In this document: positions 1-10,669 of the stretch, in pieces
How the letters are laid out: each line of letters begins with the position of its first letter
Position numbering within the stretch: position 1 is the stretch's first letter
The notes under the pieces: generated by a model
The model's input: the letters and a program-made list of their open reading frames with translations, nothing else
What the model was told of the DNA's origin: nothing
The model's database searches: none
NCBI GenBank assembly: GCA_031272025.1
Contig: JAISUP010000027.1
Span: 1 to 29,169 of the forward strand
Length of the DNA: 29,169 nucleotides
Source: Bacteroidales bacterium
GTDB taxonomy: Bacteria; Bacteroidota; Bacteroidia; Bacteroidales; WCHB1-69
Reading direction: 5' to 3'
Program-made: the position numbers and the translations under genes

Positions 1-22
1 AAACAGTTTCACGCTTTTTTAT

Positions 23-247
23 ATGAAAAAAACAGGAATTAACATCGGCGAAATAATTCATCAGGAACTCGACAAACGGGAACGGTCAGTTGCTTGGTTG
101 GCAGACAAAATCGGTTGCCATCGCACAACCATGTCGCGAATGCTCGAAAAATACAGCATCGACAGCGAAGTGCTGTTCCAAATTTCTTACGTTCTGGACG
201 TCGATTATCACGCGCTCTACTGCCAAAAATTAAAAGACAGGGCTTGA
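23..247 (+). CDS. Small XRE-like helix-turn-helix DNA-binding protein (74 aa)
   Basis: Segment SVAWLADKIGCHRTTMSRMLE has the helix-turn-helix pattern of HTH_3/XRE regulators. It stands alone directly upstream of the SPFH cluster, with a direct-repeat pair in the intervening spacer. Confidence 0.55.
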   Translation: MKKTGINIGEIIHQELDKRERSVAWLADKIGCHRTTMSRMLEKYSIDSEVLFQISYVLDVDYHALYCQKLKDRA

Positions 248-309
248 TTGTGCAAAAACGCAGCAAGTTGATACAATTTCGCATCGCTTTGCTGCAAAAA
301 ACGCAGCAA
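246..309. repeat. Direct repeat pair TGCAAAAA(A)CGCAGCAA (about 249-267 and 289-307) between the HTH gene and the SPFH gene
   Basis: Read directly: ttgtgcaaaaacgcagcaag ... gctgcaaaaaacgcagcaat, spaced about 40 bp, immediately upstream of the TAnnTTTG promoter motif at 340-347. Confidence 0.5.
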
Positions 310-339
310 TACAGCCCTTGCTAATCAATATATTAGAAG

Positions 340-347
340 TACCTTTG
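340..347 (+). promoter_or_regulatory. Bacteroidetes sigma-A -7 element TACCTTTG (TAnnTTTG), 24 bp upstream of ATG 371
   Basis: Exact match to the TAnnTTTG consensus in the AT-rich leader, at the expected distance from the start codon. Confidence 0.45.
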
Positions 348-370
348 CAGTTAGTTTTTAAAAAAATTTT

Positions 371-1480
371 ATGGCATTAATAGACGTAGTAAAATGTGAG
401 GTCAACGATAAAGAGTTTGTCTATAAATTTCCGTCAGACGATTTGCGGCTTGGAACGCAACTCGTTGTTTATCATGCGCAAACGGCTTTCTTCGTGAAAG
501 GCGGCGCGATTTATGACGGATTTACAGCAGGCACGCACACGCTGAAATCGACAAATATCCCACTGCTGAACAAATTGATTAACTTGCCCTTCGGCTCTCA
601 ATCGCCGTTCAAGGCAGAAGTTTGGTTTATCAACCAGATTTCAAAATTGGATATAAAATGGGGAACGCCGACGCCCATTCAACTTGAAGACCCGCGATAT
701 GGCGTGATTGTGCCGGTGAGGGCTTTCGGGCAGTACGGAATTCGTGTCAAAGAACCTCGCGTTTTTCTCGAAACGCTTATCAGCAATATGACCTCTTTTA
801 CTGCCGAAAAAATTGAACAGTATTTTAAAGGTAAGGTTTTGGCGCAGTTGAGCGCGTTGATTTCGCAGAAAATAGCAAAGGAAAATATTTCTATCCTTGA
901 TATTAACGTGCATTTGGTTGAGATGTCGGAATTTACGAACGAAAAACTCAACGAAACTTTCAATAAGTACGGCATTGAACTGATAGAATTTGCTTATGCC
1001 TCTATCAACGCTCCGCAGGACGACCCCAGCATAATTCGGCTGAAAGAGGCAAAAGACATTGCTGCACGGATGAAAATAACGGGAAAAGACGTCTATCAAA
1101 TGGAACGCAGTTTCGATGTGATGCAAGCCGCAGCCCAAAACGAGGGTAGCGGAATGGTCAATCTTGGCGCGGGACTTGGTGCAGGCGTAGGACTTGGCGC
1201 ACAAATGGGCGGGATGTTTGCCAACACGCTAAACACTAATCCGGTAACGCCGCCGCCAGTGCCGCAAGTTACTTATTTTCTGTATATTAACAACGCTCAG
1301 CAAGGCGGTTTCGATTTTCAGACGGTTGCAAATTATATCGCGCAACGGCAAATCACTCCCGACACTTTGGCTTGGAAACAGGGCTTGCCTTCGTGGGTAA
1401 AAATATCTGAATTACAGGAATTTACAAATTTATTCGGCGCGGTGCCACCGCCTCTGCCGCCAATGCCTAATAATTTATAG
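371..1480 (+). CDS. SPFH (band-7, COG4260-like virion-core-protein family) domain protein with a C-terminal GYF-like DUF4339 domain and a Pro-rich tail
   Basis: N-terminus MALIDVVKCE...FVYKFPSDDL...QLVVYHAQTAFFVKGG...NIPLLNKLINLPFGSQSPFKAEVWFIN is typical of COG4260 SPFH proteins. C-terminus YFLYINNAQQGGFDFQTVANYIAQRQITPDTLAWKQGLPSWVKISEL matches the DUF4339 pattern. Gly-rich linker GAGLGAGVGLGAQMGG. Confidence 0.7.
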   Translation: MALIDVVKCEVNDKEFVYKFPSDDLRLGTQLVVYHAQTAFFVKGGAIYDGFTAGTHTLKSTNIPLLNKLINLPFGSQSPFKAEVWFINQISKLDIKWGTPTPIQLEDPRYGVIVPVRAFGQYGIRVKEPRVFLETLISNMTSFTAEKIEQYFKGKVLAQLSALISQKIAKENISILDINVHLVEMSEFTNEKLNETFNKYGIELIEFAYASINAPQDDPSIIRLKEAKDIAARMKITGKDVYQMERSFDVMQAAAQNEGSGMVNLGAGLGAGVGLGAQMGGMFANTLNTNPVTPPPVPQVTYFLYINNAQQGGFDFQTVANYIAQRQITPDTLAWKQGLPSWVKISELQEFTNLFGAVPPPLPPMPNNL

Positions 1481-1482
1481 CG

Positions 1483-1827
1483 ATGACAAAGAACATTGTT
1501 TTGATTACAGGAATTATCCTGCTTGTTGCCAACTTGCTGTTTGGCAGTGTTTTATCGGCATATTCGACGTTCAATATGCTGCTCAACTGCGGAGTTATCA
1601 TTGCTAACTCCCTTTTGCTCTATCTTTTGACCTGCATCACACTAAAAGACGGGTTCCGAATTTCGCTTTCGTCTCTCTTTTCGTTTTTGGGTTTTGTCGA
1701 GTTCATTCTCGGATTAGTAGCCCCGCAACGCTACGAGGACAATGGCTGCCTGCTTGCCGTTATTCTTATTGTCGCTTTCGAGGCTATAGTGCTGGTGATT
1801 ACTAATATGGTTTCAAAAAATACGTAA
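1483..1827 (+). CDS. Small integral membrane protein (114 aa, about 4 predicted TM helices)
   Basis: ATG sits 2 nt after the SPFH stop. The sequence is hydrophobic throughout (IVLITGIILLVANLLFGSVL..., LLAVILIVAFEAIVLVITNM). Confidence 0.5.
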   Translation: MTKNIVLITGIILLVANLLFGSVLSAYSTFNMLLNCGVIIANSLLLYLLTCITLKDGFRISLSSLFSFLGFVEFILGLVAPQRYEDNGCLLAVILIVAFEAIVLVITNMVSKNT

Positions 1828-1860
1828 ATAACTTATTTATAAATATTTAAAATTAAGAAT

Positions 1861-2088
1861 ATGGGAAGAAAAGAAAAATTATTGCAAGAATATAAAGAAC
1901 GGCTTGCTTTTTTACAATCAAAGGGCGAAACCCTCTCTTCTGAAGAAAGAGCAGAAACTGAATCGTTGCAACAACGATTAAAAGAGTTGAATATAGAACA
2001 AGAAGTTGAGAGGATGAAAGATATTATCGGGAAAACTGTCATCGGAGTTGACCCAGAAAAATATGATGAATATAATAAAAACAGATAA
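1861..2088 (+). CDS. Small charged coiled-coil-like hypothetical protein (75 aa)
   Basis: ATG start; Lys/Glu-rich sequence (KEKLLQEYKERLAFLQSKGETLSSEERAETESLQQRLKEL). Tightly packed in the operon, 33 bp after the previous stop. Confidence 0.4.
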   Translation: MGRKEKLLQEYKERLAFLQSKGETLSSEERAETESLQQRLKELNIEQEVERMKDIIGKTVIGVDPEKYDEYNKNR

Positions 2089-2093
2089 AAGAT

Positions 2094-2423
2094 ATGAAAA
2101 ATCTCTACAGTGCAGTCATTCCATTCGACAATGGAAAAATGGGCATCAAGTATGCCATAGAAAATTTTGTTGGTTTTGACAAAATTTCAAAAATCATTTT
2201 GTGTTCCCAAAATGATACTGCCGTAAATAATTCCGAAAATCCAATTATTGTTATCGAAAGAAACAATAAAGACGAAATAATGGAATTGTTAGGCAAAATC
2301 AAAAACGAGACTGGTAATATTCCGGTTGAAGAACTAACACAAGAGCCAACCGTAATAGTTTTGGAACGACAAACAGGTTCCTTTATTACAGTTGAAGATG
2401 ACGGTAAATTTATTAACTATTAA
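2094..2423 (+). CDS. Hypothetical cytoplasmic protein (109 aa)
   Basis: ATG start 5 nt after the previous stop; no recognisable motif. The next gene starts 13 nt downstream. Confidence 0.4.
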   Translation: MKNLYSAVIPFDNGKMGIKYAIENFVGFDKISKIILCSQNDTAVNNSENPIIVIERNNKDEIMELLGKIKNETGNIPVEELTQEPTVIVLERQTGSFITVEDDGKFINY

Positions 2424-2436
2424 GAAAGGAATAATT

Positions 2437-3804
2437 ATGGGCTTTTTAGACGAATTAGAAAGAGGCTTTAAAAAAGGAATTAGAGAAGCAGAGCAAGACG
2501 CGAAACGCTCACGAGAAGCAGAAAGAAAACAGGAACTTTCTCGTGCTCATACAGTTTTGCATCAAATCATTCACAAATACACGGGTGTATTTGCTGTATC
2601 AAGTTATTCTGACTATCTTTATGTTGAAAAAGAGCCGTTAGAAAAAACTATTGAGGCTTTACACAACGACAATCAGCACAATCTTGCAAAAAAGTTAGAA
2701 TTGATGTATGATGATAGTAAAAATGTAGAGTATGACAAGGCTTTTGACATTTACAACATTTCGTATTTAAAAGATGTTGCGCCCTTATATGAAGGTAGAG
2801 CAAAAAAATATGATGGTAATAATGTTGCTGCTGCAACTGTTGCTAACAGCACAAAGAACGCATCGGAAAATGCCTTACATACAGGAAATGAACCAAAAGA
2901 AAAAGATACTCAATCTGCAAGGGCGCAGAACGGTTCTGTAGAAAAAAACATCCCGCCCAAAGTTCCTGAATTTTGCCCCAGTTGCGGCGCGAAAATTGAA
3001 AATTCACGAAGTTGTGAGTATTGCGGATGGTCTATGGATGGCGAGAGTAATGAAAACAAGCCCCCATTGAGCGATGATTCTTTTGTTTATCCCGGACTTG
3101 TCGATGCTCTGAATGAAAATATTCGGTTGCAAATAAAGCACAATGGAGGCAAATTTGTTGCTACGAATGTGGACTGTGATGGTTATATAGCACAATTTGT
3201 TGCTTCAAATCAGTTTACTAATCCGGATACTGGCAGTATAGTATTTCCTTCTGCCAAAAGTCCTTCCATTTCTGTTCGGTTTGATTTAGATAAAGAATCG
3301 CAAGAATTGTCGAAGTTTCAGCAGATGGATACTTTCTCTCTTTTTACACCAGCCGGTAATTGGGATAATGGTCCAGTGTATGCTGTTGATATTGGCGAAG
3401 ATGTTGTTGCAGCCGCGCAACTATATTCAAAAATTATGAAATATGCCTTTGGCTGTACAGGAGAAGAAACGTGCGAGTTCGATACTTGGTCAAATAAAGG
3501 AATTAAAGGCAGCAATAATGTCCCCGCTCATACCACTCAAAATACAGAAGGAATTAAAGGCAGCAATAATGCCCCCATTCATATCGCTCAAAATACAGGA
3601 GGTAAAAATTGGCTGACAACATTATTGTTGTGCCTTTTTCTTGGCTGGTTAGGCGTTCACAGGTTTTATACGAAGAACTACTTGGTTGGCGTGCTCCAAT
3701 TTTTTACATTTGGTTGCATCGGCTTATGGACACTGATTGATTTTATTTTGATTCTTGTTGGAAGTTACAAAGATGGCGACGGTCAATTTTTAGTTAAAAA
3801 TTAA
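2437..3804 (+). CDS. Membrane protein with three parts: a zinc-ribbon (CPSCG...CEYCGW), an uncharacterised ~150-aa domain shared with the downstream paralog, and a C-terminal TM2 domain. A 17-aa tandem repeat lies before the anchor.
   Basis: Trimmed to ATG 2437 (MGFLDELERG), which is preceded by aggaataatt. Zinc ribbon: CPSCGAKIENSRSCEYCG. The C-terminus NWLTTLLLCLFLGWLGVHRFYTKNYLVGVLQFFTFGCIGLWTLIDFILILVG matches the TM2 family signature. The shared domain YPGLVDALNENIRLQ...FGCTGEETCEFDTW aligns with the product of 3823-4575. Confidence 0.7.
   Translation: MGFLDELERGFKKGIREAEQDAKRSREAERKQELSRAHTVLHQIIHKYTGVFAVSSYSDYLYVEKEPLEKTIEALHNDNQHNLAKKLELMYDDSKNVEYDKAFDIYNISYLKDVAPLYEGRAKKYDGNNVAAATVANSTKNASENALHTGNEPKEKDTQSARAQNGSVEKNIPPKVPEFCPSCGAKIENSRSCEYCGWSMDGESNENKPPLSDDSFVYPGLVDALNENIRLQIKHNGGKFVATNVDCDGYIAQFVASNQFTNPDTGSIVFPSAKSPSISVRFDLDKESQELSKFQQMDTFSLFTPAGNWDNGPVYAVDIGEDVVAAAQLYSKIMKYAFGCTGEETCEFDTWSNKGIKGSNNVPAHTTQNTEGIKGSNNAPIHIAQNTGGKNWLTTLLLCLFLGWLGVHRFYTKNYLVGVLQFFTFGCIGLWTLIDFILILVGSYKDGDGQFLVKN
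3499..3600 (+). repeat. Intragenic 51-bp (17-aa) tandem duplication: GIKGSNNVPAHTTQNTE / GIKGSNNAPIHIAQNTG
   Basis: Unit ggaattaaaggcagcaataatg... starts at 3499 and again at 3550; about 44 of 51 nt are identical. It lies between the shared domain and the TM2 anchor. Confidence 0.8.
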
Positions 3805-3822
3805 AAATAACAATTTAGATGT

Positions 3823-4575
3823 ATGGAAAATCCGGATTATAACAGCGACGCTCCCGTTTATGCAGGATTAGCAAACGCTCTGCAAGAAAATATCAGGTTG
3901 CAAGCCGAATATGATTTTGTGGCAACGGATGTCAAAGTGTATAACAAAAACAACTTTGCTATTCAATTTTTGCCGTCTTACAGCAATTTTGTGGAAGACG
4001 GCAACAAACTGTTTCCGTTGGCTCAAAGTCCCTCTATTGCTGCCTTCTTTTGTTTTGAAAAAACTTCGCGGGAACTTGAAATCTTTAAGCAAACGGAAAT
4101 ATTCCGGCAGTTTACGGATATTAGTCGCCGCTGTTCGTCAGATGAATTAGCCATATTTGCCATTGATTTTGGGCAGGATGCCTTGGGCGCCGCGCAGATT
4201 TTCACAGATATTATGATTTCCGTTTACGGATGCACGGGACACGAAACCTGCGAATGTAAAACTTGGAAAGAAGGTGAACGCCGCCAAACAGCAGCGGTAA
4301 CCACCCAACCGGCAAATTTTGCACAGCCGGTAGTACCGACAGTAACGCCGGCGAAGACAGGTTTTATTCTGGGTTTGCTTTCGGTATTATTTGTCGCGTG
4401 GATTCCATTTATTGGACTTCCATTGCCAATCTGCGGGCTCGTTTTTTCCAACAAAGAACTCAAAAAAACACCCAACAATCTGTCGCGGGCAGGAAAAATA
4501 ATGTCGATTATCGGCATTGCCATCGGCGCTCTTATGTTTTTGCTTACGATTATCGGCATCGCGGCAGAAGAATAA
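3823..4575 (+). CDS. Paralog of the 2437-3804 product: the same uncharacterised domain, then a Thr/Pro-rich linker and a 2-TM DUF4190-like C-terminal anchor
   Basis: YAGLANALQENIRLQAEYDF...YGCTGHETCECKTW is co-linear with the upstream protein's domain. The C-terminus GFILGLLSVLFVAWIPFIGLPLPICGLVFSNKELKKTPNNLSRAGKIMSIIGIAIGALMFLLTIIGI resembles the DUF4190 two-helix motif. Confidence 0.7.
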   Translation: MENPDYNSDAPVYAGLANALQENIRLQAEYDFVATDVKVYNKNNFAIQFLPSYSNFVEDGNKLFPLAQSPSIAAFFCFEKTSRELEIFKQTEIFRQFTDISRRCSSDELAIFAIDFGQDALGAAQIFTDIMISVYGCTGHETCECKTWKEGERRQTAAVTTQPANFAQPVVPTVTPAKTGFILGLLSVLFVAWIPFIGLPLPICGLVFSNKELKKTPNNLSRAGKIMSIIGIAIGALMFLLTIIGIAAEE

Positions 4576-4603
4576 ACGACGGCTGTTCTTCCACCGATTT
4601 TCA

Positions 4604-4643
4604 AAGCCCCCGAATATCAGTATTTTATTGATTTCGGGGGCTT
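4604..4643 (+). terminator. Rho-independent terminator hairpin (aagcccccgaa ... ttcgggggctt) ending the 371-4575 cluster
   Basis: Perfect 11-bp GC-rich inverted repeat with an 18-nt loop, 28 nt after the stop codon, followed by T-containing sequence. Confidence 0.6.
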
Positions 4644-4647
4644 GTTA

Positions 4648-4690
4648 ATCGTGATAATCAAATAAATCATCCAAAAATCACAGTTCAAAG
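4648..4690. repeat. Half copy (right arm, AATCA-repeat half ending AAAATCACAGTTCA) of the GTCTGAAC...GTTCAGAC palindromic element family
   Basis: gtgataatcaaataaatcatccaaaaatcacagttcaaagg matches the right half of the full copy at 27340-27432. Confidence 0.5.
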
Positions 4691-4718
4691 GTTAATACGT
4701 TATTCCGAAAATTTTATG

Positions 4719-4726
4719 TATCTTTG
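4719..4726 (+). promoter_or_regulatory. TATCTTTG -7 promoter-like motif about 127 bp upstream of the glgB start
   Basis: Exact TAnnTTTG match. The distance to ATG 4853 is long, so this is either a long leader or not the glgB promoter. Confidence 0.3.
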
Positions 4727-4852
4727 CGTTGCATATATCACTGATTAAGTGTTATTGATTTTTTAATTTAATACTTTAAAATTAAGCATTTTATATGAGA
4801 TATGCAATATTTTTTTAGAAATTTAAGTAAACGATATTGTTAAGGTTATAAT

Positions 4853-6841
4853 ATGCGTTCACATTGTGCTCTTGTTGATATAGATCCTTGGCTTAAGCCT
4901 TATGCCGCGAATTTGGAACGGCGGTATAGGCATGCTGTGCTCACCGGGTTGTTGCTAACCAATGGCGAGCAAACCTTGGGGGAATGGGCTAACTATCATT
5001 TATATTATGGGTTACATCATGATGCTAACGGGTGGGTTTTTCGCGAGAAAGCCCCGCATGCTCGTCGTGTTTTTTTATATGGCGATTTTTCGTCGTGGCA
5101 AATCGAAGATTGCTACGCACTTACCCCGTTGGGCAATGGCGATTGGGAATTACATTTGCCGTTCCATGCTTTAAAGCATGGCATGTTGTATAAAATGTGG
5201 ATAATCTGGGACGGGGGTAGCGATGAGCGATTGCCATCGTGTTGTACGCGGGTAGTACAAGACCCCGATACGCGTATTTTCTCGGCACAAGTATGGTTTC
5301 CCGAACAGCCCTACGCGTGGAAACATCCAAATCCACCTCGCCCGGCATTCCATTACATTTATGAGGCTCACCCCGGCATCGCCTCCGACCAACCTCTTGT
5401 GGCTACCTATCAATATTTTCGAAAAATGATATTGCCGCGTATTCATCAATTGGGTTACAATACTTTGCAACTCATGGCGGTGCAGGAACATCCATATTAT
5501 GGTTCTTTTGGCTATCAGGTATCCAATTTCTTTGCTCCCAGTTCGCGGTTTGGAACTCCTGAGGACCTGAAATGTCTGATTGATGAGGCTCATGGTTTGG
5601 GAATTGCCGTTTGGCTCGACCTTGTTCATTCTCATGCCGTGAGCAATGCCCGCGAAGGAATTGCCTACCTTGACGGTAGCGACAGTCTCTATTGTTACGC
5701 GGGAAAACAAGGACAGCACCCCGTGTGGAACTCCCGCTGCTTTAACTATGGAAAACCCGAAACCCTCGCCTTCCTGCTCTCTAATATCAAATATTGGCTA
5801 CACGAGTTTCGATTCGACGGGTTTCGTTTTGATGGTGTAACCAGTATGTGTTACCGTGACCACGGGATTGGGGTAAATTTTACGGATTACAAACAATATT
5901 TTGATGCACGAAACGTGGATAATGATGCCATTGCTTACCTAACCCTTGCCAATCAACTCGTGAAAGAACTCAATCCAACCGCGGTGAGTGTTGCCGAAGA
6001 CATGAGTGGTTTACCCGGTCTCGCGTTTCCGGTATCTTTGGGGGGAATAGGGTTTGATTACCGTATGGCAATGGGTATTCCTGACTATTGGGGAAAATTG
6101 ATTAAAGAATATCCTGACGAAACATGGTCTCCGGGGGACATTTATTTTCATCTCACCGACACGCGTCCCGAAGAACAAACCATCAGTTACGCGGAGAGCC
6201 ACGACCAAGCATTAGTAGGAGACAAGACTTTTATTTTTAGGATGATTGATAAAGAAATGTACGACAAAATGTCCATAGATATTCCTTCTTTACCCGTGGA
6301 TAGAGGTATGTCGTTACATAAGATTATACGGTTTCTCACACTAACCTTGGCACGAGGCGGCTACCTTAATTTCATGGGCAACGAGTTTGGACACCCCGAA
6401 TGGATTGATTTTCCTCGAGAAGGAAATCAATGGTCGTATAGTCATGCCCTAAGACGTTGGGACTTGGCAGATAACCCGCATCTTAAATATCGCTATCTGA
6501 AAAACTTTGACCAAGCCTTGTTACAAGCAACACAGCAGGTGTGTTTGTCGCGTACGTTGCCAAAACTATTGTGCGCGCACGAGCACGACAAAGTGTTGGC
6601 TTTCGAGCGAGCGGGGGGTGTTTTCGTGGTTAACCTAAATCCAACCTATTCATTTACAGACTATGAAATTCCTGCATCACAAGGCATATATGATCTTTTA
6701 TTGAATAGTGATGCTCCCGAATTTGGGGGTTTTTCCCGCCTCGCTACCGGACAAGAATTTCATTCATACAAACGACAGGACAATGATTATCTTAAATTGT
6801 ACTTACCTACGCGAACAGCCTTGTTGCTTTTCTCAAAATAA
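4853..6841 (+). CDS. glgB: 1,4-alpha-glucan branching enzyme (GH13, eukaryote-like GH13_8 type common in Bacteroidetes)
   Basis: Conserved GH13 branching-enzyme blocks: GWVFREKAPHA, FRFDGVTSMCY, GFDYRMAMGIPDYW, NEFGHPEWIDFP, AESHDQALVGDKT. Length 662 aa. Confidence 0.85.
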   Translation: MRSHCALVDIDPWLKPYAANLERRYRHAVLTGLLLTNGEQTLGEWANYHLYYGLHHDANGWVFREKAPHARRVFLYGDFSSWQIEDCYALTPLGNGDWELHLPFHALKHGMLYKMWIIWDGGSDERLPSCCTRVVQDPDTRIFSAQVWFPEQPYAWKHPNPPRPAFHYIYEAHPGIASDQPLVATYQYFRKMILPRIHQLGYNTLQLMAVQEHPYYGSFGYQVSNFFAPSSRFGTPEDLKCLIDEAHGLGIAVWLDLVHSHAVSNAREGIAYLDGSDSLYCYAGKQGQHPVWNSRCFNYGKPETLAFLLSNIKYWLHEFRFDGFRFDGVTSMCYRDHGIGVNFTDYKQYFDARNVDNDAIAYLTLANQLVKELNPTAVSVAEDMSGLPGLAFPVSLGGIGFDYRMAMGIPDYWGKLIKEYPDETWSPGDIYFHLTDTRPEEQTISYAESHDQALVGDKTFIFRMIDKEMYDKMSIDIPSLPVDRGMSLHKIIRFLTLTLARGGYLNFMGNEFGHPEWIDFPREGNQWSYSHALRRWDLADNPHLKYRYLKNFDQALLQATQQVCLSRTLPKLLCAHEHDKVLAFERAGGVFVVNLNPTYSFTDYEIPASQGIYDLLLNSDAPEFGGFSRLATGQEFHSYKRQDNDYLKLYLPTRTALLLFSK

Positions 6842-6846
6842 AGATG

Positions 6847-6854
6847 TAACTTTG
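6847..6854 (+). promoter_or_regulatory. TAACTTTG -7 promoter motif 26 bp upstream of the prfA ATG
   Basis: Exact TAnnTTTG match between the glgB stop and the prfA start. Confidence 0.45.
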
Positions 6855-6880
6855 CAGTCCGAAATTTTTAACAAAAATTC

Positions 6881-7960
6881 ATGAATAATTTATTGGAAAA
6901 GTTAGAGGCAATATACCAAAGATGGTTATCTATCGGGGAGGAAATTACACGTCCCGAATTGATGAACGACATGAAACGGTATATCAAACTCAACAAAGAC
7001 TACAAAGATTTGCAAGCGGTAGTAGATGCATATAAGTCGTACCGCAATATCTTGGAAAACATTGTCAATACCAAAGACATTATCGCGATTGAGAAAGACG
7101 ATGATTTTAGAGAAATGGCGAAGTCGGAATTAGATAATTTCATCACCGAGCGCGACAAATTAGAAGACGAGATACGGTTATTGCTTTTACCGTCTGATCC
7201 CCAGGATAGCAAAAATGCACAAGTAGAAATACGGGCAGGCACGGGGGGCGACGAAGCCAGTTTGTTCGCGGGCGACTTATTCCGTATGTATCAACATTAT
7301 TGCGACAAGAAGAATTGGAAAATAGAGACTGTCTCGATGACAGAGGGTACCGTAGGGGGATTTAAGGAGATTATTTTTAACATCACGGGAGAGAGCGTGT
7401 ATGGCATGATGAAATACGAGTCAGGGGTACATCGCGTACAGCGTGTTCCACAAACAGAGGCTCAAGGTCGCGTACATACCTCGGCCGCCTCTGTCGTAGT
7501 ATTGCCCGAAGCCGATGAGTTTGACGTAGAACTAAAACCATCAGACATCCGTAAAGATACATACTGCTCTTCCGGTCCCGGCGGGCAGTCGGTAAATACA
7601 ACATATTCTGCCGTGAGACTTACCCACATCCCTACCGGTATCGTAGTAGCCATTCAAGACGAAAAATCTCAACTCAAAAATCTCGACAAAGCCATGCATG
7701 TTTTGCGTAACCGTCTTTTTGAATTAGAATATAAAAAGTATCTTGACGAGGTAGCCTCAAAACGAAAAACTATGGTATCTACCGGAGACCGATCCGCGAA
7801 AATCCGAACTTACAACTACCCCCAAAATCGAATTACCGACCATCGTATTAATTTAACAAGTTATAACTTAACATCGTACATGGACGGCAATATTCAAGAA
7901 ATGATAGAAGCATTACAAGTCGCCGAAAATGCCGAGCGATTGAAAGAAGCCATAGAATAA
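6881..7960 (+). CDS. prfA: Peptide chain release factor 1
   Basis: GGQ motif (SSGPGGQSVNTTYSAVRLTHIPTGIVV). Block GVHRVQRVPQTEAQGRVHTSAASV aligns with the RF1 PxT region rather than RF2 SPF. 359 aa, RF1-like N-terminus. Confidence 0.85.
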   Translation: MNNLLEKLEAIYQRWLSIGEEITRPELMNDMKRYIKLNKDYKDLQAVVDAYKSYRNILENIVNTKDIIAIEKDDDFREMAKSELDNFITERDKLEDEIRLLLLPSDPQDSKNAQVEIRAGTGGDEASLFAGDLFRMYQHYCDKKNWKIETVSMTEGTVGGFKEIIFNITGESVYGMMKYESGVHRVQRVPQTEAQGRVHTSAASVVVLPEADEFDVELKPSDIRKDTYCSSGPGGQSVNTTYSAVRLTHIPTGIVVAIQDEKSQLKNLDKAMHVLRNRLFELEYKKYLDEVASKRKTMVSTGDRSAKIRTYNYPQNRITDHRINLTSYNLTSYMDGNIQEMIEALQVAENAERLKEAIE

Positions 7961-7984
7961 ATACCTGAAAATCAATATCGGCAA

Positions 7985-10669
7985 TTAAAACAATGCCAAT
8001 TGTTCGGCATCATCGGTTTCAGTATGTGGGGAGTTCGTGCTCTTTTCCACCTGAATACTTTTGAATAGTTCTTGCGCGATGGCATCGTCAATGCTAGTAT
8101 TTTCATTTTTCGGCATCTTCTCGTCCCCGTCATTATCCGGTTCTTCTTCCATGTCATCATCGGAAGGTAACGGCTCTATATTTTTGATTTCTTTAATATT
8201 ATCGAAAGGAACTCGTTTGCCTCGTGCTTTCATATTCATTACTTCCACAAATTCGGCACACGATAAAATTTCGTGCATTTTTTCCTTTTGCCGATTAAGG
8301 TAAATCACTTCTACCTGAGGTAGGGTATCCAAAGAAACAACAATTAAGGATATATGCTTTTCTGTCGGCAAAAAATCCACTTTTTTATCGGTAATTTCCG
8401 GCTTAAAGCGTTTCATGAAAAACTTGTTGTCTTGTTTGTTATAATAGACCACGGTGAGTATCTGTCTTTGATTGAATTTTTTAATCAATATTAAGTCATC
8501 ATCGAAATGGATAGAAGTATCGAAACCGGTAGTTTTATAATATCCTGATTTATAAATAGTAATAATTTTATTATTTTCTTTGAATGAGCCAAGCAACACG
8601 CCGCGGTCTTCGGTATTGAGTCTGCAGACTGTATCATCAAAATAGATATTGATAGCACCGAGTGTGGAATATCCTTTTTCTAACAATTCTACTTTTCGCA
8701 CAGCATTTCGCGTGACGATATTTCCTTGAGACGAGCGTCCTTTGATTGCCAAAGTTCCAAAATCATATTCAAATTGCAATTTCTTTAATTTGGGTTTGGG
8801 TTTAAGCCAAATCTTGATAATTTCCGATTCCCCGTTGGCGTTAGAGGTTAAGTGTAGTACTTTCGACCCATCTTTCCCTTTGGTCAGGTCATATTCCTTG
8901 TCGCGCGTAACGCCACCAATAGCAAATCGTTTTGCCATTGCCGTACCATTTGCTCCATCGGAATATACCATATTGTAAATAGTGCGGTCGTTATTGCGAC
9001 GAAATACATCTACATGAATAATATTTTTTCCAAAAAACTGTTTATCAGAAACTTTGCTTACCATAAACTTACCGTTTTCATGAAAAACAATAATATCGTC
9101 AATATCTGAGCAGTCGCATACATATTCCACGTTATCATCTTTTTTAAGGTTGGTACCCACAAAACCTTCTTTCTTGTCCACGTAAAGTTTTTGATTGGCA
9201 ACAGCCACCGCGTTAGCCGCGATAGTATCAAAAAATTTAAGTTCGGTTTGTCGTTCCCGACCTTTTCCATATTTTTTCTTTAACTGTTTGAAATAGTTAA
9301 TGGCGTAATCAGTAATATGTTCAAGATGATTTTTCACCTCTTCCATGTTAACTTCTATGTCTGTAATTTGTTCTTCCGCTTTTTTGATGTCGAATTTTGA
9401 TATTTTTCTAACCGGTTTGTCGCATAGTTTTAAGACATCTTCTCTCGATATTTCCATTCGAAACAAGGAACGGTAGGGGTCAAAAGCACGTTCTATATTG
9501 GTAATTTGGGTTTCCCACGTGTCGGTATCTTTTTCTAATTCTTTATAGATACGATGTTCGAAAAAGATTTTCTCTAATGAAATCCAATGCCATTGATTTT
9601 CGAGTTCTTGGAGTTGAATTTGCAACTCTCTGGTTAGTAAACTTACGGTATTCTTCGTGTTGACACGCAAGATGTCTTTGACGGAGAAAAAAACGGGTTT
9701 GCCCTCGTGTATCACGCAAGCATTGGTAGAATATGACATTTGGCAGTCGGTGAAGGCGTAGAGTGCATCCATGGTTTGATCCGGTGAGACCCCGGGCTGC
9801 AAATGCAGGCATATTTCTACTGTTCCAGCCGTATTATCATCTATCTTCCTGATTTTTAATTTTCCTTTTTCTATAGCGGGGGTGATGGATTTTTCTATGA
9901 GTTGTTGAGTTGTTGTGCCGAATGGAATTTCGTTAATCACGATAGTCTTCTTATCCACGATGGTCATGCGCGCCCGATTAAGCACTTTACCGCCTCGTGC
10001 CCCGTCATTATATTTGCTCACATCGGCATAACCTGCCGTGGGAAAGTCGGGGTATATCTCGAAGTCTTTGTTTTCGAGAATCGCCACGGAGGCATCTAAT
10101 AACTCGTTGAAATTGTGTGGTAAAATTTTCGTAGAAAGTCCAACAGCAATACCTTCGGCACCTTGGGCAAGCAAAAGCGGAAATTTAACTGGCAAAACCA
10201 CAGGTTCTCTATTCCGTCCATCGTAAGAACGTTGCCATTCAGTGGTTTTATGATTAAAAAGTACTTCTAACGCGAATTTGGTTAGTCGGGCTTCAATATA
10301 CCGCGGGGCGGCGGCACTGTCGCCGGTAAAAATATTCCCCCAGTTTCCTTGCGTGTCTATCGTGAGCATTTTTTGTCCCAAGTTTACTATCGCATCCCCG
10401 ATTGCCGCATCGCCATGCGGGTGGTATTTCATCGTGTTACCAACAATATTGGCGACTTTATTGTACCTGCCATCTTCCAACTCGTCCATCGAATGAAAAA
10501 TACGCCTCTGCACCGGTTTTAATCCATCAATTATATCAGGAATCGCCCTATTGAGAATGACATACGACGCGTAGTCAAGATACCAGTTCTCGAACATAGT
10601 CTGCACGTGTATCACGTTATGCAAATCGCTTTTTTCTATTTCTGTCCCTTTTTTTTCCGAATCTTCCAT
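7985..10669 (-). CDS. parC: DNA topoisomerase IV subunit A (GyrA/ParC family type IIA topoisomerase; no GyrA-box seen)
   Basis: N-terminal blocks LNRAIPDIIDGLKPVQRRIFHSM and YHPHGDAAIGDAIVNLGQ are the GyrA/ParC active-site region, including the catalytic Tyr. 894 aa. No QRRGGKG GyrA-box in the C-terminal domain, which favours ParC over GyrA. Confidence 0.75.
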   Translation of the reverse strand: MEDSEKKGTEIEKSDLHNVIHVQTMFENWYLDYASYVILNRAIPDIIDGLKPVQRRIFHSMDELEDGRYNKVANIVGNTMKYHPHGDAAIGDAIVNLGQKMLTIDTQGNWGNIFTGDSAAAPRYIEARLTKFALEVLFNHKTTEWQRSYDGRNREPVVLPVKFPLLLAQGAEGIAVGLSTKILPHNFNELLDASVAILENKDFEIYPDFPTAGYADVSKYNDGARGGKVLNRARMTIVDKKTIVINEIPFGTTTQQLIEKSITPAIEKGKLKIRKIDDNTAGTVEICLHLQPGVSPDQTMDALYAFTDCQMSYSTNACVIHEGKPVFFSVKDILRVNTKNTVSLLTRELQIQLQELENQWHWISLEKIFFEHRIYKELEKDTDTWETQITNIERAFDPYRSLFRMEISREDVLKLCDKPVRKISKFDIKKAEEQITDIEVNMEEVKNHLEHITDYAINYFKQLKKKYGKGRERQTELKFFDTIAANAVAVANQKLYVDKKEGFVGTNLKKDDNVEYVCDCSDIDDIIVFHENGKFMVSKVSDKQFFGKNIIHVDVFRRNNDRTIYNMVYSDGANGTAMAKRFAIGGVTRDKEYDLTKGKDGSKVLHLTSNANGESEIIKIWLKPKPKLKKLQFEYDFGTLAIKGRSSQGNIVTRNAVRKVELLEKGYSTLGAINIYFDDTVCRLNTEDRGVLLGSFKENNKIITIYKSGYYKTTGFDTSIHFDDDLILIKKFNQRQILTVVYYNKQDNKFFMKRFKPEITDKKVDFLPTEKHISLIVVSLDTLPQVEVIYLNRQKEKMHEILSCAEFVEVMNMKARGKRVPFDNIKEIKNIEPLPSDDDMEEEPDNDGDEKMPKNENTSIDDAIAQELFKSIQVEKSTNSPHTETDDAEQLALF

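Follow-up and report, generated by a model that had tools for sequence, protein, structure and literature searches.

A domain shared by two adjacent membrane proteins in an SPFH gene cassette of Bacteroidales

The window analysed here is a stretch of 29,169 nucleotides from a Bacteroidales bacterium (contig JAISUP010000027.1 of assembly GCA_031272025.1). Positions 1-4600 hold a tight row of plus-strand genes, running from 23-247 through 3823-4575, and the last two of these genes encode the membrane proteins that are called A and B below. The domain of about 150 aa that both proteins carry, named DOM, is in no family database and represents a new family of about 230 clusters. A and B are the last genes of a conserved operon, in which the gene for an SPFH protein with Band_7_1 and GYF_2 domains is followed by a gene for a protein with four transmembrane (TM) helices and then by a gene for a Zn-ribbon membrane protein.

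Proteins A and B and their shared domain

The features of the two proteins are as follows.

2437-3804, plus strand: protein A, 455 aa, with a unique N-terminal extension (aa 1-175), a Zn ribbon, DOM, a repeat linker and TM2
2974-3024, plus strand: Zn ribbon of A, CPSCGAKIENSRSCEYC, aa 180-196 (regular-expression match and weak Pfam DZR/Zn_ribbon matches)
3061-3531, plus strand: DOM copy in A, aa ~209-365 (BLASTP against B)
3497-3602, plus strand: 51-nt tandem repeat in 2.1 copies, giving a 17-aa repeat, the linker between DOM and TM2 (Tandem Repeats Finder, TRF: 89% matches, score 170)
3601-3747, plus strand: TM2 domain of A, a two-helix anchor, aa 389-437 (Pfam TM2)
3823-4575, plus strand: protein B, 250 aa, with DOM but no Zn ribbon, a Thr/Pro linker and a DUF4190/CD225-like anchor
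3847-4287, plus strand: DOM copy in B, aa 9-155, the sequence used for modelling (AlphaFold2, AF2, models)
4339-4572, plus strand: anchor of B, aa 173-250, made of a Pro-rich hydrophobic segment, a Lys/Arg-rich loop and a TM helix

A BLASTP comparison of A with B gave an E-value of 8e-31 and 34% identity over about 207 columns (A 209-405, B 4-194), with 42% identity in a conserved core of about 145 residues. This bears out the claim of an earlier, sequence-only reading of this DNA that the two proteins share a co-linear domain. The accessory parts which that reading described in A are real as well, as indicated by the regular expression for the Zn ribbon, by TRF for the 17-aa repeat and by a Pfam score above cut-off for TM2. 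The ribbon corresponds to a near-invariant family motif, CPNCGA..TN..NCE[YF]CGSLL, the 51-nt repeat codes for GIKGSNN[VA]P.H..QNT twice, and the TM2 domain (PF05154) reaches 60.5 bits against a cut-off of 27.9 (E 1.8e-16, profile positions 2-51 of 51). The start of A is ambiguous: the ATG at 2437 gives 455 aa, while the public record, which names the product 'TM2 domain-containing protein', starts at 2398 and gives 468 aa. For B, a two-helix anchor resembling DUF4190 had been proposed. The layout is real, with hydrophobic segments at residues 173-192 and 222-250, but the likeness to DUF4190 (PF13828) is found only below the cut-off (22 bits against 35, E 1.4e-4). The NCBIfam model CCC_membrane (NF040945) is also resembled below threshold, with 25.5 bits against a cut-off of 65 (E 1.3e-5). 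The B orthologue P0002 (68% identity), from a metagenome-assembled genome (MAG) of Tannerella sp., is annotated as 'CD225/dispanin family protein'.

The shared segment of A and B has no match in Pfam, NCBIfam, PADLOC or PHROG at E-values up to 1. The DOM region of ten further family members is likewise without any Pfam or NCBIfam match, none of 53 DOM segments matches Pfam at E up to 0.01, and a DOM profile retrieved none of the PDB sequences at E up to 1. A word-indexed search with the domain of B returned, besides itself, only one Tannerella orthologue; the Tannerella MAG carries P0002 together with P0004, a TM2-anchored protein at the position of A. Next, an exhaustive search was made with four DOM copies as the profile against 1.84 billion cluster representatives. 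This yielded 234 proteins (50%-identity clusters) at E<=1e-3, one of which, P0033, is a repeat-protein artefact, and 80 at E<=1e-10. In the source records they are unannotated or named 'hypothetical protein', and each cluster contains 1-6 sequences. For the DOM copy of A, the family profile matches residues 226-370 of P0003 with an E-value of 1.7e-64.

Among the 150 family proteins listed, the dominant layout is a chain of about 250-270 aa with a Zn ribbon, DOM and a single C-terminal TM helix. The CxxC...CxxC ribbon usually lies at about residues 8-24 and DOM at about 45-210, followed by the TM helix. Variants have two TM helices, no TM helix, two DOM copies or long C-terminal extensions. DOM is found on a single tail TM helix, a TM pair, TM2, a DUF4190-like segment or no anchor at all. 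The suggestion that the shared segment is an uncatalogued, membrane-tethered domain therefore stands, given the lack of library matches and its recurrence on different anchors. The Zn ribbon, with the extended motif CPNCGA..TN..NCE[YF]CGSLL[VI]RF, is better conserved than DOM, and DOM identity ranges from 22 to 68% across loci compared with 58-90% for the SPFH protein.

A tail of the form ...(K/R)G(V/I)(E/Q/D)(S/N)TPY.D.. was observed on DOM proteins as well as on non-DOM Zn-ribbon proteins in which no TM helix is predicted. It is carried by the C-termini encoded at L083 and L087, by L012 6001-6987 and by P0048, P0068, P0102 and P0151, and it may be a further module for attachment to the membrane or to a partner.

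The motif CTGxETCE, at the end of both copies in the window, had been described as strictly conserved and as a possible metal or redox site. It turned out to be lineage-specific. In an alignment of 53 DOM sequences (residues numbered as in B), position C137 is Cys in 4/53 and mostly Ile, Leu or Val; C143 is Cys in 6/53 and Leu in 25; and C145 is Cys in 13/53 and Tyr in 19. No column of this alignment has a combined Cys and His content of >=30%. Even the B orthologue P0002 reads YSGNETCDC at this place, and the syntenic TM2-anchored P0004 reads ENIPYEEHLEY, without any Cys in the segment. In the model, the last beta-strand is made up of residues 143-153 of B, and most relatives have a hydrophobic residue at position 143. 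Since the Cys residues are not kept and the second one occupies a hydrophobic position of the last strand, a metal or redox site is unlikely. The positions which are conserved are G15, L16, L20, N23, Q27, T35, F88, F97, I114, D115, F116, G117, D119, A123, A124 and T147. These are mostly core, turn or hydrophobic positions, within the patterns GL..AL..NL.LQ, V.TD, F..LD.F.LFT and EY.IDFG.D..GAA.

Modelling of the DOM copy of B with AF2 gave a predicted local distance difference test (pLDDT) score of 85.7 from 4 sequences, and a pLDDT of 91.9 with a predicted template modelling (pTM) score of 0.86 from 53 sequences. The topology, a1-b1-b2-b3-a2-a3-b4-a4-b5, is identical in both models. A Foldseek comparison of the model with the PDB returned nothing at E below 0.08. 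According to these models, DOM is a well-defined, compact alpha/beta fold with no close solved relative.

The SPFH cassette and its distribution

The two genes at the start of the conserved operon are the following.

371-1480, plus strand: soluble SPFH protein, 369 aa, the presumed core scaffold, with Band_7_1 (aa 17-217), a Gly-rich segment and GYF_2 (aa 302-351) (Pfam)
1483-1827, plus strand: TM114, 114 aa, with four TM helices, the constant second gene (four hydrophobic segments)

The SPFH protein matches Band_7_1 (PF13421) with 162.7 bits against a threshold of 24 (E 1.2e-47) and GYF_2 with an E-value of 1.6e-12, and it has no TM-like segment (maximum KD19 1.1). BLASTP aligns it with YdjI of Bacillus subtilis (E 2e-19), which itself matches Band_7_1. 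TM114 has no Pfam or NCBIfam family match. The GYF_2 domain is flanked by PPP/PPPxP motifs (aa ~290-300 and ~355-365) that are invariant or nearly so in 12 aligned orthologues. Proline-rich peptides are the ligands of GYF domains, so contacts among the subunits of the SPFH assembly could be made through these motifs.

A genome scan seeded with a 14-member DOM alignment, and biased to the canonical Zn ribbon, identified 27 loci with a DOM relative, which is a lower bound. All are in MAGs, 26 from Bacteroidales and one from Fibrobacter. The Bacteroidales hosts include Prevotella, Alloprevotella, Bacteroidaceae, Muribaculaceae, Tannerella, Porphyromonadaceae, Rikenellaceae, Paludibacteraceae and Cryptobacteroides. 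The sources are gut, rumen and termite, and those record titles that name a host indicate rumen or gut. Four further loci, from Firmicutes, match the Zn ribbon only. At every one of the 27 loci the SPFH-GYF_2 gene (58-90% identity) and TM114 (40-86%) lie directly upstream on the same strand, and look-ups of the contigs of P0014, P0019, P0043, P0026 and the Tannerella locus agree with this arrangement.

Clustering of the open reading frames (ORFs) of 31 loci identified the SPFH protein, TM114 (present in 31/31) and the DOM protein as the only common families, with unrelated flanks. No conserved fourth gene was found: no Pfam family was hit by more than 6 ORFs among the 150 flanking ones that were scanned. 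These flanking ORFs are mostly housekeeping genes. Serine recombinases lie near 6 of about 29 loci; at other loci, an integrase and a RhuM gene were seen.

A second scan, of metagenomes, was seeded with the SPFH protein. Eighty loci were kept, and the 45 with at least 1.5 kb of downstream sequence were counted. TM114 is present in 44/45, an ORF with an N-terminal Zn ribbon follows within 1.5 kb after it in 44/45, and DOM is found in 28/45. The third gene of the other 17 encodes a different Zn-ribbon protein. Examples of such non-DOM genes in the third slot are:

L051, 2086-3531
L052, 5175-6683
L083, 4980-6020
L087, 4743-5792
L106, 3065-3934

A recurrent type among them has a helical middle part that is followed by TM2 and/or a DUF4190-like anchor, a tail TM helix or a 'GCYIAT...STPYxD' tail. 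This family combines a CE[LM]CGS...C..CG.KY ribbon and a helical domain with variable C-termini, and the L051 protein carries TM2 and a DUF4190-like anchor in one chain. Since these 17 loci carry other Zn-ribbon proteins, what stays constant in the third component is its Zn ribbon and its anchor, with DOM as the commonest of several heads that can be interchanged.

The history of A and B fits this exchange of heads. The DOM copy of A is nearer to that of B (42%) than to that of P0004 (33%). It groups with B, P0013, P0015 and P0016 at about 42% identity, while the domain of P0004 (Tannerella, L001 9110-9967) groups with that of P0014 (57%). The TM2 anchors of A and P0004, however, are 81% identical, which points to a swap of DOM heads on a conserved anchor. 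The idea of a duplicated module holds insofar as two copies are present on different anchors, but its history is not that of a simple local duplication. Tandem DOM genes occur in five lineages (the window, the Tannerella locus, L021, L032 and L038), and the copies have different anchors. An expanded cassette is found at L124 2846-4531, where genes for a 52-aa Pro-rich peptide, a 135-aa Zn-ribbon protein and a 192-aa Zn-ribbon-DOM protein without TM helix are followed by one for a 176-aa protein with DOM and a TM helix but no Zn ribbon (P0026). The canonical chain is here split over two genes. This resembles the arrangement of A and B and suggests, on the basis of gene structure, that DOM may pair with DOM.

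Two cassettes outside Bacteroidales were observed. L030, a Fibrobacter sp. MAG from rumen, carries the whole SPFH-GYF / 4-TM / Zn-ribbon-DOM cassette with an SPFH protein 65% identical to that of the window, which suggests a transfer between phyla or else a binning error. In a Firmicutes variant from Christensenella (L039 6244-7672), the Band_7_1 protein itself has three C-terminal Zn ribbons, and its gene is followed by one for a 2-TM protein ending in a Zn ribbon. Among 2.9 million viral contigs the DOM family is absent save for one match to the Zn ribbon only. A phage origin was rejected based on this single match and on PHROG matches that fall only on the TM2 and Zn-ribbon parts. Membership of a defence system was rejected as well, none of the six window proteins having a PADLOC match.

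The remaining genes in the row are listed below.

23-247, plus strand: small Cro/C1-like helix-turn-helix (HTH) protein, 74 aa (weak Pfam HTH_26/HTH_35 matches)
1861-2088, plus strand: orf75, 75 aa, charged, probably coiled-coil, lineage-specific, in a low-GC insert
2094-2423, plus strand: orf109, 109 aa, lineage-specific, in the low-GC insert

Neither orf75 nor orf109 matches a family in Pfam, NCBIfam, PADLOC or PHROG or has a homologue in any fetched locus. Together with the first ~175 residues of A, they occupy a stretch of about 1.1 kb (~1828-2970), and GC content is 0.35 for 2001-3000. This insert is without a homologue in any fetched locus. It also lacks a counterpart in the Tannerella locus, which is collinear in other respects and has its TM2 gene starting 22 nt past the 4-TM gene. 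Judging from this comparison, it looks like a lineage-specific insertion that has been fused onto A. In the Tannerella MAG loci L001/L027 and L028, a homologue of the HTH gene (53-54% identity) lies directly 5' of the SPFH gene. The HTH gene is present at 6/31 loci and, being kept only in the closest ones, is an optional part of the cassette. Its product may act as a local regulator. At other loci, HTH homologues were seen downstream, beside a Ser/Thr kinase-like gene (L019). A promoter and terminator scan of positions 1-5000 was uninformative (16 promoter-like and 10 terminator-like sites, where 12.3 and 5.5, respectively, were expected). The genes 3' of the cassette (4853-10669) appear housekeeping-like, as judged by eye only: a glycogen-branching/alpha-amylase-family enzyme at 4853-6841, peptide chain release factor 1 with a GGQ motif at 6881-7960 and, on the minus strand, a GyrA/ParC-type topoisomerase subunit at 7985-10669.

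Possible roles of A, B and DOM

In B. subtilis, YdjI/SamI loses its membrane localisation upon deletion of ydjG or ydjH, and two-hybrid data link YdjH to both YdjI and YdjG (PMC8581546; bioRxiv 10.64898/2026.02.06.704340). By analogy, the favoured reading is that A and B serve as adaptors, anchored in the membrane and facing the cytoplasm, within an SPFH module of the YdjGHI/SamGHI kind, in which DOM would be an interaction head without enzymatic activity. The probability of this reading is put at about 0.5. The module would consist of the soluble Band_7_1 SPFH protein with its GYF_2 domain, the small 4-TM protein and one or two Zn-ribbon/middle/anchor proteins. As with YdjG and YdjH, both kinds of membrane protein would dock and organise the SPFH assembly at the cytoplasmic face of the inner membrane. 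DOM would then most likely be a protein-protein interaction unit, pairing either with itself or with a client protein, and B, having lost the Zn ribbon, would probably act via A by DOM:DOM pairing.

Several results are in line with these adaptor roles. DOM is presumably cytoplasmic, because no signal peptide is present and because it lies between an N-terminal ribbon and a tail anchor in most of the ~150 representatives listed. It is probably not an enzyme, because it has no conserved Cys or His and its conserved positions are hydrophobic or structural. The cytoplasmic location, the recruitment of the SPFH protein and the use of DOM as a binding or pairing module are all suggested by gene linkage, by architecture and by one characterised analogue.

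Some observations weigh against the adaptor reading. Gene linkage indicates a shared process and not a physical contact between DOM and the SPFH protein, and the topology was judged from simple hydropathy and architecture. DOM is missing at 17/45 SPFH-TM114 loci and is therefore not required for the core function. It also diverges much faster than the SPFH protein, and a sensor or specificity role fits this equally well. One orphan, P0083 (L125 4001-4870), combines DOM with a coiled coil and a TM helix, has no Zn ribbon and has no SPFH-GYF or TM114 gene within 4 kb; a classical Band_7 gene is located 2.6 kb off on the other strand. No homology was detected between DOM and either YdjH or the central part of YdjG. 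Finally, unlike in Bacillus, no pspA gene lies beside the neighbourhoods examined: PspA_IM30 was found neither among the called neighbours of DOM loci, nor among the 25 families of the 150 flanking ORFs, nor among the six window proteins scanned.

The main rival, though rather unlikely, makes DOM the variable head, acting as sensor or effector, of a membrane-associated conflict system (anti-phage or abortive) or of a stress-signalling system, with SPFH and TM114 as the constant machinery and the Zn-ribbon proteins as carriers of exchangeable recognition modules. The polymorphic middle module, with DOM at 28/45 and others at 17/45 loci on one Zn-ribbon/anchor chassis, would fit such a role, as would the fast divergence of DOM relative to SPFH, the tandem duplications and the domain swapping between A and the Tannerella TM2 protein. 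The same can be said of the patchy distribution, the flanks that differ per genome, the one cross-phylum copy in Fibrobacter and the serine recombinases, integrase and RhuM gene near some of the loci. On the other hand, no PADLOC model matches, the module has no toxin-like, nuclease, protease or NTPase domain, the flanking genes are mostly housekeeping and the family is essentially absent from viral contigs; moreover, the characterised relative, SamGHI, is an envelope-stress and not a defence system. In its boldest form, which is somewhat more doubtful still, the cassette would be horizontally mobile and would form a membrane surveillance system, not described before, in gut Bacteroidales, with SPFH as a constant platform for fast-evolving, swappable heads that recognise signals or invaders. 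If true, the cassette would be a polymorphic sensor array and not a housekeeping scaffold.

Other explanations are far less probable. That DOM is a divergent papain-like or other membrane hydrolase with non-canonical catalytic residues is very improbable: helix 1 does not begin with Cys, no alignment column is rich in Cys or His, none of the 53 members has a Pfam peptidase match and the Foldseek comparison with the PDB gave nothing below the value mentioned above. Even less credible is a metal or redox site at CTGxETCE that would define the function of the domain. Both window copies do carry C137 and C143, and Cys at 143 and/or 145 is seen again in the closest subfamily (P0002, P0013, P0015 and P0016), but the low Cys counts across the family, the Cys-free segment of P0004 and the location of residue 143 in the last beta-strand argue against it. 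An incidental adjacency, with A and B functionally unrelated to SPFH and TM114, is just as hard to believe. The orphan P0083, away from any SPFH-GYF/TM114 pair, would agree with it, yet the linkage holds at 27/27 loci from at least eight Bacteroidales families and one Fibrobacter, with otherwise unrelated flanks, short intergenic gaps and all genes on the same strand.

Heads and anchors (tail TM, TM2, DUF4190-like) are shuffled in many combinations, and this may shed light on the use that bacteria make of TM2 and DUF4190 anchors. DOM could be registered as a new domain family, and its SPFH context provides a testable functional setting.

Comparison with known systems

Known families cover only parts of A and B. 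In the TM2 family (PF05154), Zn-ribbon-TM2 proteins without DOM (P0006, P0007 and P0009) are the next-best matches of A; TM2 is only the anchor of A, and neither DOM nor the SPFH operon context is a feature of that family. Members of the DUF4190, CD225/dispanin and CCC families have the same layout as the C-terminus of B, i.e. a hydrophobic, Pro-containing segment, a basic loop and a TM helix, but the DUF4190 and CCC families say nothing on its N-terminal 155 residues.

On the structural level, YkuJ of B. subtilis (PDB 2ffg) covers half of DOM at 7% identity, without a sequence or profile match. Papain-fold cores (AvrPphB, PaTox, tegument-like deubiquitinases, LifA and MCF) align over about half of the residues with no sequence signal. 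Their catalytic Cys and His are absent from the DOM family, in which helix 1 starts with a conserved Gly-Leu, and more generally DOM is without the catalytic residues of the enzymes it faintly resembles.

According to Ravi et al. (2024, PMC11237479), CesT/Tir-like chaperone domains are linked to Band-7/PspA operons, and YdjG consists of two Zn ribbons, an NTF2-like (YpeB-related) domain and a TM helix. The layout of the B. subtilis operon was confirmed here as PspA_IM30, Zn_Ribbon_TF (YdjG), TPM_phosphatase (YdjH) and Band_7_1 with Zn_ribbon_3 (YdjI). Using a YdjG query that is 99% identical to B. subtilis entries, hhalign aligned the DOM family with YdjG over the Zn ribbon only (29 columns, probability 90.9, E 1e-6). 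A comparison of DOM with YdjH gave nothing. Homology of DOM to the NTF2-like centre of YdjG or to YdjH was therefore rejected. Compared with the YdjG family, A shares the ribbon and B is without it, while the C-terminal TM helix and the adjacent Band_7_1 gene are shared.

The window further differs from SamGHI in its reversed gene order, with SPFH first, and in the lack of an adjacent pspA. Its SPFH protein has GYF_2 where YdjI has a C-terminal Zn ribbon, and its second membrane protein is a 4-TM protein of 114 aa where YdjH is a TPM-domain protein. In both systems, however, the gene of a TM-less Band_7_1 SPFH protein adjoins genes for two different membrane proteins, and both YdjG and the DOM proteins combine an N-terminal Zn ribbon and a globular domain, cytoplasmic as far as predicted for DOM, with a C-terminal TM helix. 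SPFH/flotillin-type scaffolds are universal. To our knowledge, the membrane recruitment of a bacterial SPFH protein without TM helix is known from one system only, SamGHI of Bacillus, and the cassette in the window would represent a second solution to the same problem, with non-homologous membrane partners, in the dominant gut phylum.

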